Part shown: piece after piece, positions 3,809 to 35,612 of the stretch
How positions within the stretch are numbered: position 1 is the first letter of the stretch
Layout: each line of letters opens with the position of its first letter
DNA from: a bacterium
GTDB taxonomy: Bacteria > Patescibacteriota > Minisyncoccia > Sungbacterales > GWA2-42-14
Direction: 5' to 3'
Assembly (NCBI GenBank): GCA_030649305.1
Contig: JAUSFV010000006.1
Location: 32-64,031 of the forward strand
DNA length: 64,000 nt
Made by a program: the position numbers and the translations under genes
The notes under the pieces: generated by a model
Told to the model about the DNA's origin: nothing
The model's database searches: none
What the model saw: the letters and a program-made list of their open reading frames with translations, nothing else

Positions 3809-4219
3809 TTATTTCGGACGCTTTGCCCCGTATTTAGACCGCTGCTGTTTTCTTCCCTCAACTCCCGTCGTATCCAAAATCCCGCGCACAATGTGATAGC
3901 GCACTCCCGGCAAATCTTTTACCCTGCCCCCGCGAATAATAACCACCGAATGTTCTTGCAGTTTGTGCCCCTCGCCCGGAATATAGGCCGTTACTTCCAT
4001 GCCATTGGTCAGACGAACGCGCGCAACTTTACGAAGTGCTGAGTTTGGTTTCTTCGGCGTCATGGTTTTTACCAAAATACACACTCCCCGCTTGAATGAA
4101 GAGGGATACAATTTCGGGCGGTTTTTGAGTACGTTAAATCCGCGCGCGAGTGCGGGCGCTTTTGTCTTTTTTCGCTTTAATTTTCTGTTTCGCTTCAGAA
4201 GCTGATGAATGGTTGGCAT
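3809..4219 (-). CDS. rpsL: 30S ribosomal protein S12
   Basis: [12 protein letters not shown]… …[19 protein letters not shown]…: canonical S12. Start taken at MPTIHQ rather than the longer track ORF. Confidence 0.9.
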
Positions 4220-4420
4220 AAAATCAATGATAAATGAACAAAACGATAATAGCAAGAATATAAAAATGAGTCAAACCCCGTTACCTCAACGTGGCATGAC
4301 GCCATGCGTTTCTTTGTGAGGTGTAAATTTCCCCAGGTAATCATTTCTCGGGGTATATCTAAAATTCAATTGGGCGTAAAACGCTATGCCGTGTTGTGGT
4401 GCGGGGTCAAATGCACGAAG

Positions 4421-4442
4421 AAAAAAAGCGGGGATTCCCGCT
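4421..4442 (-). terminator. Rho-independent terminator downstream of ORF 4445..4657 (minus strand)
   Basis: AGCGGG-GATT-CCCGCT hairpin preceded on the plus strand by A7, giving a U-tract on the minus transcript. Confidence 0.5.
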
Positions 4443-4444
4443 CT

Positions 4445-4657
4445 TTAATTGTCTGTAAGAGTATATTTCTCCTCAAACGCAAGTATACAAAGCTCTGCGA
4501 GCGTCTTTATTAACCCGTCAATTGCCTCCTGCTCATCGGGAGTAGGAAAGCTTGAAATCGGATTGAAAAGCTCGGGGAGTCTCTTTTTGGCAAATTCTCT
4601 TGCCGCCTTCTCCGCTTCCGAACGCTTCATCGTCGGCTTCTGACCGCAACACGCCAT
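4445..4657 (-). CDS. Hypothetical small protein, 70 aa
   Basis: Track ORF followed by an intrinsic terminator. Confidence 0.35.
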   Translation of the reverse strand: MACCGQKPTMKRSEAEKAAREFAKKRLPELFNPISSFPTPDEQEAIDGLIKTLAELCILAFEEKYTLTDN

Positions 4658-4753
4658 TTCTGCATCCTCCTTATCACAAATATCACCAAAGAACTGCTTC
4701 CCTAAGTTATGCCAAGTAATCTGCTATGTCAAACAAAAAAGACCGACGTGGCC

Positions 4754-4996
4754 TTATTGATGCGTGAGAACGTGTGATGCGCGATAACATACGAAATAAT
4801 ATACGATTGCGCCTATGAAAGGGAGGGCGCACATAAGAAGAATCATCAAAATGTTTACGACATTTTCTGCCGGCCACATCTTGATGGTCCGGATAACCGC
4901 GTGGATAAACATCCAAAGACCGAAAAAACCCAGCACGAAAACCAGAAGAAACGCAAAAAGCCCGAATCCCGCTATAAACCACCCAATAAAGTCCAT
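4754..4996 (-). CDS. Small 2-TM membrane protein, PLDc_N-like (…LLMCALPFIGAIVYYFVCYR…)
   Basis: Hydrophobic 80-aa ORF whose C-terminal helix matches the PLD-nuclease N-terminal domain pattern (LP.iG..Yl..Gr). Confidence 0.45.
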   Translation of the reverse strand: MDFIGWFIAGFGLFAFLLVFVLGFFGLWMFIHAVIRTIKMWPAENVVNILMILLMCALPFIGAIVYYFVCYRASHVLTHQ

Positions 4997-5181
4997 GCCG
5001 AATCTCCCTCTATATATAGTATCAAAGGAACAAGCGTATTCAGAATAGCAAACCGAATATTTTTGTCAACAAAAAAGGCGCGAAAAGTCCCACAACAACA
5101 TTCCAACATTCTGCCTAAAGCCCGTTGGCTCGGCCAAGTAGGGCAGAATGTTGGAATGTTTAAAAAATGAAAAAAGGCGCA

Positions 5182-5505
5182 CTAGGTACGCCCCTTACCA
5201 AAAAAGAGATCACGATCATACACAAGGAGATCGGCCATAAGCTTGCGCAACCTTCTTGCGGCAACCTCTTTCTTGCTTCCCGTCGTAGAAATAGAAACTC
5301 CCCGCTTTTTATCATTCATACCCGTAACACAAACCACATCCGCCACATATCCCTTGTCTTCCGCGCTATAAAAGACCTGATAACTAAAAGCTTTGCATCT
5401 CCGTACGCGAACGCCACGACGCAACTCGCGAAGCAATTTTACCATGCGTTTTTTCTCCTTTTCAACGATTGTGCGAAACAGCAAGTTGCTGGCCGCAGTT
5501 TCCAC
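5182..5505 (-). CDS. Double-stranded-RNA-binding-domain-like protein
   Basis: …YVADVVCVTG…GSKKEVAARRLRKLMADLL fits the dsRBD C-terminal consensus G.G.SKKEAK.AA..AL. Confidence 0.4.
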   Translation of the reverse strand: METAASNLLFRTIVEKEKKRMVKLLRELRRGVRVRRCKAFSYQVFYSAEDKGYVADVVCVTGMNDKKRGVSISTTGSKKEVAARRLRKLMADLLVYDRDLFFGKGRT

Positions 5506-5656
5506 AGAATTTATTTTCTCGCCAATTTTCTTTCTGACAAGAAACGCACACGATGAATCTGTTGGTTGAGTGAATCCATTTTTCTATCCGCGGCAAAAGA
5601 AGCCACAGAACATACATAGCGATTGCTATAAGAACGCACGCGAGAAGAATATCCAT
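5462..5656 (-). CDS. Small membrane-anchored zinc-ribbon protein, 64 aa
   Basis: N-terminal TM helix followed by CVSC…CGNC; overlaps the upstream ORF by 44 nt. Confidence 0.3.
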   Translation of the reverse strand: MDILLACVLIAIAMYVLWLLLPRIEKWIHSTNRFIVCVSCQKENWRENKFCGNCGQQLAVSHNR

Positions 5657-5807: not shown

Positions 5808-6470
5808 TTAGAAAAAAGAAACGCCGGAAAAAATTCTGAACAACAACGATACAACCGGAAACAGCCATTGCGAGAAAAAGAAAATAAAAATCAAAAGGAG
5901 GAAAAAACCGTATTGCTGAAGAAATGTTTCAATGTTGCGCCACTGATACGGAAGCAGGGCGAATAACACTTTTGACCCGTCCAGCGGAGGAATCGGAACA
6001 AAATTAAACACCGCAAGCACGAGATTCACCAGAACAATCAAACCGAAAATTTCCGCGAGATTTTGTGTCACAAGCGAGCCGCCACCGAACACCAGCAATA
6101 CGCGAATGCCGATACCAAACACCAATGCAATGAGGATGTTGGACAACGGCCCCGCCATACCCACGAGCGCCGGCCCCCAATCATTTCGCGAACCAAACCG
6201 CGAAAAGGGATTCTTCAAATTATACGGATTATACGGCACGGGCTTTGCCCATCCGATTAAAAAGGGAGAATGCGCCAAAACGAGCAAAAGCGGCAAAATA
6301 ACCGACCCGAACGGGTCCAAATGTTTCAGAGGGTTCAGCGTCAGGCGCCCCAAATGCTTTGCCGTAGGGTCGCCAAGAAGAAGGGCAACAAACCCATGCG
6401 AAACCTCATGAATCACAACAGAAAAAATAAGAATGGCGATTTGAAAAATAGTAGGGATTGCAGAATCCAT
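5808..6470 (-). CDS. Site-2 protease-family zinc metalloprotease (peptidase M50)
   Basis: HEVSHGFVALLLGD (HExxH in a TM helix) plus LNPLKHLDPFGS; polytopic membrane protein. Confidence 0.75.
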   Translation of the reverse strand: MDSAIPTIFQIAILIFSVVIHEVSHGFVALLLGDPTAKHLGRLTLNPLKHLDPFGSVILPLLLVLAHSPFLIGWAKPVPYNPYNLKNPFSRFGSRNDWGPALVGMAGPLSNILIALVFGIGIRVLLVFGGGSLVTQNLAEIFGLIVLVNLVLAVFNFVPIPPLDGSKVLFALLPYQWRNIETFLQQYGFFLLLIFIFFFSQWLFPVVSLLFRIFSGVSFF

Positions 6471-6513
6471 AGAAAAATGATACCCTTAACGAAGTTACAA
6501 ATTACCTTACCTT

Positions 6514-6738
6514 ATGAGAATCTGTCCTATCTGCGACAAACAATCAGCAATGGCGGGAACGCGAAAACTCCTTCGCGGTCATTATAACCTGACCAAGCGC
6601 TCGCGCAAATACCCGAACCTCCAATGGGTGGTTTTATCGCCCGCGGTCTTGAAAAAACTCGGAGCAACAAAAGTCCCCCCGGGAAAACGTGTTTTAGTAT
6701 GCACCAAATGCATCAAGGCCCTCGGCAAAAAGAAATAA
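6514..6738 (+). CDS. rpmB: 50S ribosomal protein L28
   Basis: MRICPICDK…RKYPNLQW: L28 Cys pair and PNLQ motif. Confidence 0.8.
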   Translation: MRICPICDKQSAMAGTRKLLRGHYNLTKRSRKYPNLQWVVLSPAVLKKLGATKVPPGKRVLVCTKCIKALGKKK

Positions 6739-6801
6739 GCATCGCGAAGATGCTTATCTATAAAACTGTGAAGATACAATGCGGGCACAACAACAACGCC
6801 G

Positions 6802-7307
6802 CTAACATCTGCATATTAAAAGTTGTTCTCTGTGGCGCGCTATCTGATATGCCCCCGATAGGATATCCCCGCGATCACGAAGAATAACAAAGATGTCATC
6901 TGGATTGCGCCGAACCAGATACAAATAACCAAACGCCAAACCAACCGGATATAAGGGGTCATCAACCGCATAACGCGAATTTGAGTGCTGAAAAAAATAA
7001 TCTTGTAGAATCGCGTTGTGCGAATTTGGCCTTGCGTCACGCATGATTTCTCTGATGGTGATTGAGCCGGTTATTGCCGCTGATTGAAATAATTCAAGAG
7101 CCTGCGTTTCTGCTTCAAGGCCTTTTCCCAAACGAGCATATGTATCGGGCGACATCTTGCATACCAGCTTTTCGTTCTTATTCAACAATATTTCAAAATA
7201 AACAAGCTTTTTATCGGGATAATTTTTCACAACAAATTCCTGAGCCGTATCGGTGACGCGAGCCATGAATTCTTTCGGTGAAAGAACTGCAATACCTTTT
7301 CGTTCCA
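6802..7307 (-). CDS. Hypothetical protein, ~168 aa
   Basis: Track ORF; start placed at MERKGIAV… preceded by a GAGAGGG RBS. Confidence 0.4.
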
Positions 7308-7385
7308 TGGATACCCTCTCTTTTTTTACCATAGAAAGACCCAAAAAAATCGTATCATAACCGCGCGGGAAGAACAACATACAAC

Positions 7386-8888
7386 ATGAAAATTCTTGCC
7401 AAACAATTCGGGGCCGCTCCGAAAGCCGAAGCGATTGCTTTGGCGCTTTTTGAAAAAGAGGATATCGCAAAAAATCCTCTTTTCCGTCTGCTCCCAAACA
7501 ACGTGCAGGCGCTCGTAAAAAAGTTTATTTCAGGCGGAGGATTTTCGGGAAAAGAAAGCGAAACAAAAGTTCTACCAATTTTTGAAACCTCCCTCAAAAA
7601 AATAATTCTGCTTGGACGTGGAGATAAGCAAAAATGGCATCGGAGAAAAGCGCTCCTTATTCCCCGCCGCGTAATACAAACAGCAAAACAAGAGCGCGTC
7701 AAAACAATTGCAACGCACTTGGATATGCTGGGCGATAATTCAGAAGCGCACTCGTCCGCGCGCGACATCACGACAAATATGCTCATGGCGTATTTTGAAT
7801 ATCGCCGAAAAGTAATGCCGAAAGACGGGTGGCCAGAAGTTAAGGAGGTAACCCTGCTTTGCGAAAAAAAAGATGCAAAGGCCGCAACCGAAGGCATTCG
7901 CGAGGGCAACATCATTGGTGAGGAAACAAACGAAACGCGGATACTTTCAAATACCCCCGGAGGCGAGATGACGCCCGCAACCCTTGCAGATGCCGCACGG
8001 AGAGCAGGAAAAAAACACGGGGTTCGTGTTACCATTTTTGACGAGAAAAAAATGAAAGCACTCGGGTTTGGCGGAGTACTTGGCGTTGGAAAGGGTTCAG
8101 ACATTCCTCCATGCTTTATCGTTATGGAGTACCGGCACGGTGGAAAACAAAAACCGCTGGTGCTCGTCGGCAAAGGCGTTACGTTTGATACCGGAGGATT
8201 AAACCTCAAACCAAGCGAGGGAATTTATGAAATGCATCTTGATATGTCGGGGGGTGCGGCGGTAATTCATGCCGTTTCCGCAATCGCGCGCCTGAAACTC
8301 CCGTTGAATGTCGTGGGGCTCGTGCCCGCGGTTGAAAATATGCCGTCGGGTTCAAGTTATCATCCGGGTGATTTACTCAAAACGTATTCGGGTAAAACGA
8401 TTGAAGTGCTGAATACAGATGCCGAGGGCCGGGTTATTTTGGCGGATGCTTTAGCGTATGCCAAAAAATTCAATCCCTTGCTCGTTGTAGATATTGCGAC
8501 ACTCACGGGTGCCGCCATGGGCGCACTTGGCCAGCGCGTATCGGCGCTCTTTACACAAAATCAGAAATTGGAAAAAATATTTCGCGAACTTGGAACACAG
8601 AGCGGAGACGAAATGTGGCCGCTTCCCTTGTGGGACGAATACGACGCTGATATTCAGGCGACATTTGGCGATATCGCGAATATCGCGAAAACAAAATATG
8701 GCGGGGCAATTACGGCCGCATCATTCTTAAAACAATTCGTGGACGGGTACCCGTGGGTGCATTTGGATATCGCGCCGACCATGACCACGATTGAAAGCCA
8801 GCACTTGGCAAAGGGGGCATCAGGTGTTGGTGTGCGATTTTTCGTAGAGCTTGCGAAGCATATCGTGAAAAATGGGATCTCTGTATAA
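7386..8888 (+). CDS. pepA: Leucyl/cytosol aminopeptidase (peptidase M17)
   Basis: NTDAEGRVILADALAYA M17 signature; 500 aa. Confidence 0.85.
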   Translation: MKILAKQFGAAPKAEAIALALFEKEDIAKNPLFRLLPNNVQALVKKFISGGGFSGKESETKVLPIFETSLKKIILLGRGDKQKWHRRKALLIPRRVIQTAKQERVKTIATHLDMLGDNSEAHSSARDITTNMLMAYFEYRRKVMPKDGWPEVKEVTLLCEKKDAKAATEGIREGNIIGEETNETRILSNTPGGEMTPATLADAARRAGKKHGVRVTIFDEKKMKALGFGGVLGVGKGSDIPPCFIVMEYRHGGKQKPLVLVGKGVTFDTGGLNLKPSEGIYEMHLDMSGGAAVIHAVSAIARLKLPLNVVGLVPAVENMPSGSSYHPGDLLKTYSGKTIEVLNTDAEGRVILADALAYAKKFNPLLVVDIATLTGAAMGALGQRVSALFTQNQKLEKIFRELGTQSGDEMWPLPLWDEYDADIQATFGDIANIAKTKYGGAITAASFLKQFVDGYPWVHLDIAPTMTTIESQHLAKGASGVGVRFFVELAKHIVKNGISV

Positions 8889-8923
8889 TTATAATAATGA
8901 ATGAGAAGGTTCTATATTTTGGT

Positions 8924-8960
8924 CGGGGTGTAGTATATCGGCAGTACGCATGCATGGGGG
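8924..8960 (+). pseudogene. Orphan 5' half of a tRNA-Pro-like gene (acceptor CGGGGTG, D-arm, anticodon stem 5' strand, loop AUGGGGG)
   Basis: Identical to the 5' half of tRNA-Pro at 9049, including ~12 nt of 5' flank, except acceptor position 5 (G vs C). It is followed by a 12-bp hairpin instead of the 3' anticodon stem. Confidence 0.55.
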
Positions 8961-9048
8961 TGAAGCGTGAATGTCTTCACGCTTCACGGGATTACTTCCC
9001 CCTATGTTTTATTATCAAAGTAATCCCCGGCTCTTTCTGTATTTTGGT

Positions 9049-9122
9049 CGGGCTGTAGTATATCGGCAGTACACATGCATGGGGTGCATGTAGGTCGGGT
9101 TCGATTCCCGACAGCCCGACCA
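9049..9122 (+). tRNA. tRNA-Pro (anticodon GGG), CCA encoded
   Basis: Hand-folded cloverleaf: acceptor CGGGCUG/CAGCCCG, D-stem GUAU/GUAC, anticodon stem CAUGC/GCAUG with loop AUGGGGU, T-arm UCGGG-UUCGAUU-CCCGA, discriminator A. Confidence 0.8.
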
Positions 9123-9138
9123 AAATACAGAACAAAGA

Positions 9139-9174
9139 GATGTAGGCCGGGTTCGATTCCCGGCACCCCGACCA
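9139..9174 (+). pseudogene. Orphan 3' fragment of a tRNA-Pro paralog (variable loop, T-arm CCGGG/CCCGG, acceptor 3' strand CACCCCG, A, CCA)
   Basis: Its acceptor 3' strand complements the orphan 5' half at 8924, not the intact tRNA at 9049; compensatory differences appear in both the acceptor and T stems. Confidence 0.5.
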
Positions 9175-9342
9175 AAAAATTGAAGAAAAAGATGCGGGCC
9201 GGGCCTGCCCCATTAGATGCGAAGCTATCTAATGGGGTGAAATTCCCGGCAACCCCAAAATCAAACCGGACAAAAACGAACTCAAAATACGAAGAAAATC
9301 GATTTAACAAAAAACCGGTAACTAACAAAGTTTTAAATAATT

Positions 9343-10296
9343 ATGGAAGACATAATTTTTCAAATATACGGAACTTTTGTTCTGACTCTAGCAAGTTTTG
9401 TTTTACCAATTATTGCTATCGCTTTATCGGCCTTCCCCGATGGAGTTAAAACGTTAAAGCAAACCTACGCGAATGAACAAAAACAAGCAGAAAAAAATCT
9501 TAGTGATGAATTAGAAAAAAAAGAAAAATCCGAAAAAAATCTTGATTATGACCTCTTGGAAAAAAATATCCGGACTTTAAAATTAACCAAAAAGAAGACC
9601 GAGAAACGCTTATCATATTTAAATCCCAATTATATTTTATCAAAAAGCGTAATAGCGATTGGAATTTCTATTATATCTTTTTTACTTGGACTACTATTTT
9701 ATAACCTGTCTTCTTATATCATCCCGTCGTTTCTTTTTTTGCTCAGTATTGGAACTATGGTCTGGATGATTATAATTTTTTCTAACTCAATTAAAATCGT
9801 TATTGAAGCCTCGTCCGCAGTTCAAGAAATACGCAAAACCACGGAAGAAACAATAATAGAGCTCCTCGCCACCCTTGTTGATAATAGCAAAAGCAAAGAT
9901 CGGTCACTCTTTATAGAACACAAACATATTTCAACATCTTTCAACAATGAAGAGGTTAAGGAAGGAAAAGAGTATTCGTTCTCAATAAATAAAAAATATA
10001 AAATAAAAATTTCTTTGACGAATTCTAGCGAATATATGCTAAAAACGGCTGAACTCGGTTTTACTTTTCCAGCAGAATTTTTAGTTGAAGGAACAACAAT
10101 ATCTAGAACCTATACTGGCGATAAAGAAAAAATAATCAGATTTGAACACGACCACCTTCAATCTAAAGAAAGGATGCAAGAAGGTGCAATAGATATGACC
10201 TTTCTAAAAATGGGGGTATTCGATATAGAGACATTTGTTAAAGGAGAAAATCTAAAAAGAAAAACTATTAAATTTAAAATTAAAGTTATCGAATAG
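9343..10296 (+). CDS. AT-rich Lys/Glu-rich membrane protein of unknown function (probable horizontally acquired gene)
   Basis: 317-aa ORF with 3-4 TM helices and visibly lower GC than its surroundings, directly adjacent to the tRNA-Pro locus. Confidence 0.55.
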   Translation: MEDIIFQIYGTFVLTLASFVLPIIAIALSAFPDGVKTLKQTYANEQKQAEKNLSDELEKKEKSEKNLDYDLLEKNIRTLKLTKKKTEKRLSYLNPNYILSKSVIAIGISIISFLLGLLFYNLSSYIIPSFLFLLSIGTMVWMIIIFSNSIKIVIEASSAVQEIRKTTEETIIELLATLVDNSKSKDRSLFIEHKHISTSFNNEEVKEGKEYSFSINKKYKIKISLTNSSEYMLKTAELGFTFPAEFLVEGTTISRTYTGDKEKIIRFEHDHLQSKERMQEGAIDMTFLKMGVFDIETFVKGENLKRKTIKFKIKVIE

Positions 10297-35526: not shown

Positions 35527-35612
35527 AAAATCCATCAAAGTTCGTTGAGAGGGCTAAACGCCTATTGGCGTCGCCCGAACACGCCCGAGGGCGTGTTCGG
35601 GGGAGAATAAAA

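Follow-up and report, generated by a model that had tools for sequence, protein, structure and literature searches.

Nested tRNA genes in Patescibacteria: an intact tRNA-Pro gene enclosed by the complementary halves of a second tRNA-Pro

Incomplete and interrupted tRNA genes are known from several settings. Integrative elements leave tRNA gene fragments behind as attL/attR repeats (Williams 2002; van der Gulik et al. 2023, PMC9897764). Archaeal tRNA genes may be disrupted by bulge-helix-bulge (BHB) introns at canonical and non-canonical sites, may contain multiple introns, and may be split or permuted (PMC4033280, PMC4390854). Group I introns have been found in tRNA genes of Patescibacteria, including introns at position 35/36 (Nakagawa et al. 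2026, PMC13011429). The present analysis concerns a tRNA-Pro locus in a stretch of 64,000 nucleotides of contig JAUSFV010000006.1 (assembly GCA_030649305.1, Patescibacteriota, Sungbacterales; positions 32 to 64,031 of the forward strand), which is referred to as the window and from whose first letter all coordinates are counted. At this locus a complete tRNA-Pro gene lies between the 5' and 3' parts of a second tRNA-Pro that pair with each other, an arrangement termed here a nested tRNA gene, or nest, with the two outer parts as its shell. Such a layout is common in Patescibacteria and apparently undescribed; no description of nested tRNA genes was found in the open-access literature.

Nests share with integration fragments the presence of a partial tRNA copy beside a complete one, the displacement of 3' fragments downstream, and a break that often falls in the anticodon loop. 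They differ from them in that a 5' and a 3' fragment pair around the complete gene with neither an island nor an integrase, in that the spacers are short, structured, covarying helices, and in being recurrent and lineage-specific. As in the disrupted archaeal tRNAs, the interruption lies in the anticodon loop, sometimes also in the D loop, and complementary sequences unite the halves. Nests, however, are bacterial, have no BHB motif and carry a whole tRNA of the same kind as the insert, and many of their shells lack a usable anticodon loop. To our knowledge, no splicing endonuclease is known in Patescibacteria. The group I introns occur in the same phylum and also target the anticodon loop, and position 35/36 is used in several Gly and Ala nests. 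In contrast to these introns, the non-tRNA part of a nest measures ~40-105 nt and has no Rfam group I match, the 5' exon does not end in U, and other tRNA species are involved.

Two further groups of structures are similar in form. The leader-trailer helices of rRNA precursors are cut by RNase III, and Y RNA and YrlA-type RNAs consist of a long helix capped by a tRNA-like module. In nests a long helix is likewise formed by the flanks, with a tRNA-shaped module at its tip; here, however, that module is a genuine tRNA gene, and a second tRNA-shaped shell surrounds the helix. Integron attC sites, REP/RAYT elements and the ends of IS200/IS605 are hairpin recombination sites defined by structure. 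Nests resemble these sites in that the hairpin structure is conserved, with covariation, rather than the sequence, in being small and non-coding, and in the lack of target duplication; they differ in carrying a tRNA as cargo and in being targeted to the anticodon region of that very tRNA species, and a cognate recombinase was not found.

Anatomy and decoding capacity of the tRNA-Pro locus

The inner gene (B; 9049..9122, + strand, CCA encoded), presumed to be the working one, is called by ARAGORN as tRNA-Pro(GGG) and recognised by Rfam with 52.9 bits. Its acceptor and T stems (CGGGCTG/CAGCCCG and TCGGG/CCCGA) stand two compensated pairs apart from those of the outer copy, in agreement with a preliminary description of this DNA, made from the letters alone, which had reported an intact gene with compensatorily different stems. 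The outer copy, on the same strand, consists of a 5' part (A; 8924..8959), comprising the acceptor 5' strand, the D arm, the 5' strand of the anticodon stem and the loop as far as G37, and of a 3' part (C; 9140..9174), comprising positions 41-43 (ATG), the variable loop, the T arm, the acceptor 3' strand, A73 and CCA. Both copies had been recognised in that description and are real, although their limits had to be corrected, the 5' part ending at 8959 and not 8960 and the 3' part starting at 9140 and not 9139. The proposed mutual complementarity of the orphan parts was also borne out: the outer acceptor (CGGGGTG/CACCCCG) and T stem (CCGGG/CCCGG) are complementary throughout, so that the shell is paired at 7/7 acceptor, 5/5 T-stem and 4/4 D-stem positions. 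The identity of A to the inner gene stops after G37 (8959), which places the break at about 37/38 of the anticodon loop, where it had been expected, and the outer copy is without positions 38-40.

The distance of ~180 nt between A and C holds two hairpins and the complete inner tRNA, the non-tRNA part amounting to ~105 nt. Hairpin hp1 (8960..8987, +), which follows directly on ATGGGG, is the 12-bp hairpin already noticed after the orphan half; it is perfect, has a TGTC loop, and its structure is kept in five loci of the class described below. Hairpin hp2, or stem2 (8988..9027, +), has 10 bp formed by GGGATTACTT and AAGTAATCCC around a 20-nt loop. It is followed by CGG and the inner leader CTCTTTCTGTATTTTGGT (together 9028..9048, +), and this leader pairs with the inner trailer AAATACAGAACAAAGAG (9123..9139, +), which with CCA forms the 3' strand of the leader-trailer helix. 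The helix joins 9035-9065 to 9102-9132 over ~18 bp, the encoded CCA included, and its leader-trailer duplex has an energy of -21.0 kcal/mol (z = -3.9). On the outside, the leader TTCTATATTTTGGT (8910..8923, +) pairs with the outer trailer at 9171-9184, and together with the acceptor stem it forms an inverted repeat with the 3' side of 21 nt and 90% complementarity. The outer trailer itself (9175..9191, +, 17 nt) is a diverged copy of the inner one. The upstream flank common to both 5' copies, which had also been pointed out, is a 14-nt leader identical at 13/14 positions to the inner leader at 9035-9048. Overall, 8910-8959 is a direct repeat, 94% identical, of 9035-9084 (the leader and tRNA positions 1-37), and 9140-9191 is an 85% copy of 9088-9139 (positions 41-76 and the 17-nt trailer) with a start-to-start distance of exactly 52 nt. 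The expression "nested duplication" used earlier describes the locus correctly. In the RNA fold of 8908-9192 (285 nt; z = -9.98 against 200 shuffles) the outer helix encloses hp1 and the inner helix. Such a structure is not a product of chance, given 50-nt repeats at 85-94% identity and this fold score.

A third 3' unit follows at 9192..9298 (+). It reads ATGCGGG-CCGGG, an insertion with an 11-bp hairpin (9208-9237), ATTCCCGG-CAACCCC and a trailer-like tail; the hairpin is thus inserted in the T loop, the acceptor strand is CAACCCC, and there is no upstream 5' partner. Decayed as it is, this unit reaches an alignment score of 46 against 22.4 +/- 4.2 (maximum 40.8) in shuffles, and its presence makes the window resemble what is left of a nest with three layers. 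The third unit, hp2 and the pairing of the inner leader with its trailer go beyond the preliminary description. The same type of T-loop junction (GGGGTGAAATTCCCGG in the third unit) was observed in L023, one of the loci collected in this work and designated by L numbers: at 4560-4760 a tRNA-Arg(CCT) is flanked by CCCCGCGCCCT and AGGGCTGCGGGG, then TGAAATTCCTCT, which looks like a nest with its shell broken in the T loop.

Two classes, class I and class II, were distinguished among the nests in the present analysis. The window belongs to class I, as it has complementary halves of the same identity, hp1 with stem2, and an intact inner tRNA with a leader-trailer helix; it also shows the class I pattern of (A/C)TGGGGG, hp1 directly after it, and then a stem2 of the form GGGA(A/T)T.../...A(T/A)TCCC. 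Its inner unit sits beside stem2, while in L002, L093, L120 and L190 stem2 is capped by the inner tRNA, and the CGGAGG junction of these four loci is interrupted in the window, where it reads CGG, inner unit, AG. A promoter and terminator scan of 8600-9600 revealed nothing relevant, and hp1 has no U tract. One other perfect 12-bp GC-rich hairpin, CCCGAACACGCC CTCG GGCGTGTTCGGG at 35574-35601, is the sole other long hairpin of such type in the window. The string GGGGTGAA, common to the class II 3' junction and two sites at the locus, was considered as a dispersed element and rejected, its other four matches in the window lying within coding sequence.

When A and C were joined in all ways tried, no normal anticodon arm was obtained, and the best combination (CATGC with AGATG) gave 3/5 pairs. 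With such a stem and with nucleotides 38-40 missing, the outer copy of the window is unable to yield a tRNA that decodes. A split or intron-containing tRNA, which had been mentioned as a less likely reading of this locus, is not supported, since the joined halves leave a 3-bp anticodon stem. Also in line with the earlier expectation, tRNA software does not fold 8924..9174 as one gene; in the window the intron mode of ARAGORN joined A to the 3' half of the inner gene with a G.G mismatch and never to C. Over all loci this mode returned only spurious long-intron calls, which were discarded. No BHB element, sought as a 4-bp helix flanked by two 3-nt bulges and joining the junctions, was found; the 5' junction (8959/8960) enters the self-contained 12-bp hairpin, and the 3' junction (9139/9140) abuts the inner leader-trailer helix. 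With Rfam, neither Intron_gpI nor any other additional family was found in 8850-9350 at E up to 10, apart from the sub-threshold tmRNA matches described below, and at gathering score no group I intron was matched among 16 nested loci, where only the inner tRNAs were recognised. A split or permuted gene was rejected, as the halves stand in normal order, 180 nt apart, on one strand. The permuted transfer-messenger RNA (tmRNA) family RF04321 matched 9147-9243 with 28.3 bits against a gathering score of 47, a match that covers only the T arm and acceptor of C and a chance GGGGU at 9234 and was dismissed; a beta_tmRNA match in the same interval is also below threshold (19.4 bits). No tmRNA was called by ARAGORN, and the acceptor has C1:G72 and G3:C70, not the G3:U70 of alanine.

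Recurrence of nested tRNA genes in relatives and across the candidate phyla radiation

Comparison with related genomes proved as informative as the preliminary description had supposed. In the window, PepA is encoded just upstream of the locus and is 100% identical to a protein from a metagenome-assembled genome; the same nested layout lies 3' of pepA in L002 and L003. A tRNA-Pro follows pepA in all four closer relatives (L001 to L004, PepA 73-82% identical). The nest of L002 is the same with every stem compensatorily changed (shell acceptor CGGGCTA/TAGCCCG, shell T stem CTGGG/CCCAG, hp1 formed by GCGAAACGAGAA and TTCTCGTTTCGC), and its inner tRNA-Pro(GGG) sits on top of stem2; this inner gene was called by ARAGORN and was not reported by Rfam at gathering score. 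The nest of L003 is without hp1, and its 3' part is decayed. The two remaining relatives, L001 and L004, are represented by Logan short-read contigs that end at 5115 and 1911, so that only 30 and 61 nt of the tRNA-Pro are covered; such breaks would be expected of genomes in which this tRNA sequence is repeated. The first tRNA-Pro copy of L004 apparently runs through the anticodon arm uninterrupted. The more distant PepA relatives, at 55-58% identity, of which the named ones are Candidatus Sungbacteria, members of Patescibacteria/candidate phyla radiation (CPR), have no tRNA after pepA, and the orthologous series is therefore not extendable to them. The comparison with L002 and L003 indicates that the nested arrangement is inherited in a small clade and changes fast. 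Separately, T loops of the form TCCGAYT, with C replacing the universal U55, were observed in L002 (5783-5855 and 5886-5918) and in L011, L044, L095 and L108.

Beyond this clade, one genome per species was scanned for two T arms 25-55 nt apart, a distance too short for two full genes, and at least 120 loci were retrieved. At least 35 further nests were recognised among them, with the order 5' part, linker, complete tRNA, linker, 3' part. They involve tRNAs for Pro, Gly, Ala, His, Glu, Leu, Cys, Thr, Arg and Asp, and among the matches listed nearly all are in CPR genomes, labelled as Patescibacteria, Saccharibacteria, Jorgensen-, Kuenen-, Vogel-, Morani-, Gottesman-, Staskawicz-, Woese-, Portnoy-, Curtiss- and Levyibacteria. 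The contig of L117 (CAYVXP010000001.1) is labelled "Gammaproteobacteria", a misleading title given that all its named protein homologues are from Patescibacteria. Six other loci from TPA_asm records of metagenome-assembled genomes (L009, L026, L078, L095, L098 and L109), titled "uncultured Gammaproteobacteria" or "uncultured Bdellovibrionales", probably belong with L117 as carriers of CPR-type nests. The inner and outer identity is the same in all nests, and the anticodon is usually the same; three layers are present in L082 and L102. The break may fall anywhere from 31/32 to 38/39, and the junction sequences differ by tRNA family. Among ~60 CPR loci of 8 kb, all the interrupted tRNAs that were found enclosed an intact copy. 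Phage contigs searched for the pair of T arms yielded 112 matches, of which 0 are CPR-type nests, and the Gly linker pattern had no match there either. A metagenome scan with the class I 3' junction CCGGAGGNTG and a T arm mostly retrieved ordinary tRNA-Arg(CCG), whose anticodon arm contains the string, and was set aside apart from L139, L148, L173 and L190, which were useful. Two observations from the survey may be added. One Patescibacteria contig, L015, carries three tRNA-Pro genes in a stretch of 1.4 kb (6313-7711), with the anticodons TGG, CGG and GGG, the last of them nested. In Bacteroidota (Agriterribacter, Aquimarina) a conserved RNA-like unit of ~200 nt was seen in L010 (- strand, ~1246-1440), L013 (~514-720) and L091 (~5411-5618), in which an acceptor-like ACCTCTT/AAGAGGT and a T arm surround a large insert and which ARAGORN reports as a tRNA with a 110-130-nt intron.

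The helices of the nests are conserved as structures. The flanks of the inner gene form a helix in all nests, usually with a C-rich 5' start and a G-rich 3' side (CCCGCC...GGCGGG), and the leader-trailer duplex of the 37 inner tRNAs has a mean energy of -17.8 kcal/mol, compared with -8.7 kcal/mol in the 224 other tRNAs of the same loci (p = 4.5e-10). When six class II tRNA-Pro nests were aligned, pairing was seen in 97.7% of cells compared with 83.3% in shuffles (0/500); 26 pairs are changed on both sides, the linker helix covaries at 7/9 pairs, and the shell stems are supported as well as the stems of the inner tRNA. The shell acceptor differs from the inner one in each of these class II nests yet remains self-complementary. 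Loop positions 32-33 of these shells read CC, CC, CA, CG and CC instead of YU, with U33 lost, and the class II shells therefore do not look like decoders. In Cys, Ala, Thr and Glu nests (L009, L061, L063, L008, L101, L025, L117) the insert was observed to begin with TCCCGA or a similar sequence, which pairs either with a nearby TCGGGA, giving a local hairpin, or with a TCGGGA at the far 3' end of the insert, so that two alternative pairings exist. An assembly artefact, for example the collapse of strain variants into a chimeric repeat, could be suspected because the window sequence comes from a metagenome-assembled genome and the short-read contigs of two relatives break inside the same tRNA. 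It is nevertheless extremely improbable, since the same architecture is met with diverged sequence in independent studies, assemblers and lineages, and covariation between loci is not producible by misassembly.

Recurrence also bears on a possible origin from an integrase. To the preliminary description the locus looked like a scar left at a tRNA attachment site when an element integrated site-specifically and was excised, and some features fit such a view: displaced 3' fragments downstream of an intact tRNA gene are the usual product of integration, the non-CPR matches listed are mostly plain tRNA 3'-end repeats as in the classic integration scar and many of them look as reported for integrative elements (PMC9897764), and an AT-rich open reading frame (ORF) follows the locus. 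The last had been noted as a gene of foreign appearance; it is the ORF at 9343-10296, GC content being 0.36 for 9001-10000 against ~0.47 elsewhere, and its single Pfam match is weak and to a membrane-protein domain. A Pfam search of 17 flanking ORFs, which include all those of at least 170 aa within 1-24 kb, found no integrase or recombinase domain, the products being PepA, an M50 peptidase, a PspC protein, a histidine phosphatase, a mannitol dehydrogenase, a PRPP synthetase, a pilin-like protein and others. There is no island DNA between the tRNA copies, and the 3' copies are contiguous with their 52-nt period. Moreover, an attB x attP exchange does not produce a 5' half that lies upstream and pairs with the displaced 3' part, the linkers are structured, and the same layout is conserved at the orthologous locus and recurs in dozens of unrelated CPR tRNA genes. 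With no integrase, no island, halves that pair around a complete gene and this recurrence, the integration scar is not supported; the nested layout is not a one-off event of this type, and integrase action is a very improbable source of it, the weakest of the biological explanations.

Origin, turnover and possible roles of the shells

In the interpretation that we favour, and to which we give roughly even chances, the inner gene is the working tRNA, and the outer halves are a non-decoding shell, left behind each time a copy of the same tRNA with flanking hairpins was inserted into the anticodon region; the shell remains self-complementary, and recombination sometimes resolves the nest. Such a copy would repeatedly enter the anticodon region of the currently functional gene, with the newest copy innermost, and the insertion would disable the old copy and supply its replacement in one step. 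The inner tRNA may be freed from the long helix by RNase P at its 5' end and by exonucleolytic trimming to CCA at its 3' end, perhaps after a cut of the helix; class A RNase P RNA is present in the nest-bearing genome L050. The shell halves may be kept mutually complementary and distinct from the inner acceptor because unpaired halves would invade and misfold the essential inner tRNA, and gene conversion and recent origin may also contribute to their complementarity. The shells would later decay, gain hairpin insertions or be lost by recombination between direct repeats. Repeated insertion would fit the outermost position of the most decayed unit (window, L102), the identity match between layers, the lack of interrupted genes without an inner copy, and the tolerance of shells to insertions and deletions.

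The turnover of shells can be followed in several loci. Extra hairpins are inserted in the shell D loop in L015, L061, L063, L093, L102 and L190, and the shells of L003, L006, L021 and L105 have lost a half or carry mismatches. In an orthologous series of tRNA-Glu genes, L117 is a nest, and so is L334, although its 5' half has gained two further hairpins and its 3' part is truncated. In L332 and L333 the 5' half with its linker is gone, while the same upstream flank is still followed by the intact tRNA, the 3' linker and the 3' part. This is the expected outcome of recombination between direct repeats, and the series indicates that loci with only an intact gene and a 3' part can descend from nests. 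A palindrome, CCTGCC(TGCC)GGCAGG(CAGG), was also observed repeatedly in CPR intergenic DNA and in shell halves (D loop, T arm) of L008, L015, L087, L090 and L334; in L334 it occupies positions ~165-188 of the reverse complement of 4100-4880, and it looks like a small dispersed hairpin element.

Several results weigh against the insertion of hairpin-flanked copies as the origin of passive shells. No enzyme or mechanism has been identified for the proposed insertion. The scan pattern of two intact T arms, frequently combined with a perfect-acceptor filter, biases the sample to intact shells, whose frequency is therefore overestimated. The resemblance of the inner flanks to the outer ones and the exact 52-nt 3' tandem in the window fit local duplication equally well. 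Exact excision of the insert would give several shells of the Gly, Ala and His families a perfect anticodon loop of 7 nt again, as a splicing model would predict. The shell of L120 is well diverged from its inner gene and still perfectly paired, which could mean that the shell is functional. Finally, hp1, stem2 and the Gly linker arms are conserved across genomes without other alignable DNA. This conservation exceeds what passive relics need and suggests a function; it also suggests that the hairpins are recognised by something, either as RNA during processing or as folded single-stranded DNA during recombination.

The last points are also the ground for regarding the whole unit as a functional composite RNA, in which the shell arms, hp1, stem2 and a purine-rich junction (ATGGGGG ... 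CGGAGG) would make up a conserved, tRNA-like, non-decoding RNA with a larger domain in place of the anticodon arm. Such an RNA may be a processing or stability scaffold for the inner tRNA, or a tRNA mimic, for instance one that is chargeable and non-ribosomal. In class I, which comprises five loci only (the window, L002, L093, L120 and L190), 78/80 positions are paired in the shell acceptor, D and T stems compared with 14/25 in the anticodon stem (Fisher p = 1e-6). Across these loci hp1 is paired at 57/57 positions, with 8/11 covarying, and stem2 at 46/46, both helices showing covariation; the junction ATGGGGG or CTGGGGG occurs in 4/5 loci, as does CGGAGG. The paired and diverged shell of L120 points in the same direction, and so do three tRNA-Gly nests, in which the linker arms are ~95% identical, more than the tRNAs (~77%), and the flanks are unalignable. 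On the other hand, large hairpin insertions are tolerated in the shell D loop (L093, L190, L334, L061, L063), shells have lost parts (L003, L021, L105) or, among close relatives, are deleted (L332, L333), the place of the break and the sequence of the junctions vary between tRNA families, and there is no Rfam family match. A composite RNA of this kind, one of the two main rivals of the favoured reading beside a true intron, is considered rather unlikely. A bolder proposal, which we put forward tentatively and regard as possible though doubtful, is that nests reflect a new genetic system: either structure-recognising recombination or homing, by which hairpin-flanked tRNA cassettes would enter the anticodon loop of the cognate tRNA gene as non-coding, selfish "disrupt-and-replace" elements, or protein-dependent bacterial splicing, which would remove an intron made of a helix and a tRNA and by which one transcript would give two tRNAs.

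A true intron, with removal of the segment and ligation of the halves so that one transcript yields two tRNAs, would need a bacterial endonuclease and ligase pathway of an unknown kind. Exact removal would restore the anticodon loop of the inner gene in L065 (TTTG/CAT, the slash marking the junction), L097 and L106 (TTCC/CAA), L108 (TTTC/CAA), L031 (TTG/TGGC) and L023 (TTCGCA/T), and in those loci the first and last insert nucleotides pair at the base of the helix. Class II shells have complete cloverleaf stems, and introns at 35/36 are known from tRNAs of Patescibacteria (PMC13011429). These features have to be set against the 3-bp anticodon stem left by A and C in the window, the missing U33 of the class II Pro shells, the spread of break positions from 31/32 to 38/39, and the absence of both a group I core and a BHB motif. 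In addition, every interrupted gene holds an intact copy, which would be needless under splicing. Excision of an intron is thus held to be quite improbable, and it applies to other members of the family more than to the window locus.

Local duplication, by slippage or unequal exchange that copied the 5' and 3' parts and was followed by gene conversion, would dispense with insertion and leave functionless fragments. The exact 52-nt tandem period with its three 3' units and the copying of leader and trailer along with the tRNA parts agree with it, and in the Glu series the linkers have diverged but the shell has kept the sequence of the inner gene, as gene conversion would allow. It leaves unexplained, however, why A pairs with C and not with the inner 3' half, why conserved non-tRNA hairpins stand between A and the inner gene, why helix-forming linkers occur in all families, and why nests are restricted to CPR and may have three layers. 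Only a small chance is given to this origin.

Significance of nested tRNA genes

Disrupted tRNA genes, that is, those with introns, split or permuted, are central evidence on the evolution of tRNA and of introns. Nested tRNA genes, with up to three layers, are a fourth arrangement outside that catalogue, and they occur often in a large radiation of bacteria whose genomes are minimal and whose tRNAs are single-copy. ARAGORN, tRNAscan-type tools and Rfam do not see the shells, which also break short-read assemblies; their 3' parts can be mistaken for integration scars or for extra tRNA genes in estimates of CPR genome completeness. The class I and Gly-family linkers, better conserved than the surrounding tRNAs, are concrete experimental targets.

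Summarizing, nests point either to a process that targets the anticodon region of a working gene with a replacement supplied or to an unknown route of RNA processing. If cassette recombination or splicing is true, nested tRNA genes would constitute a new category beside intron-containing, split and permuted tRNA genes.

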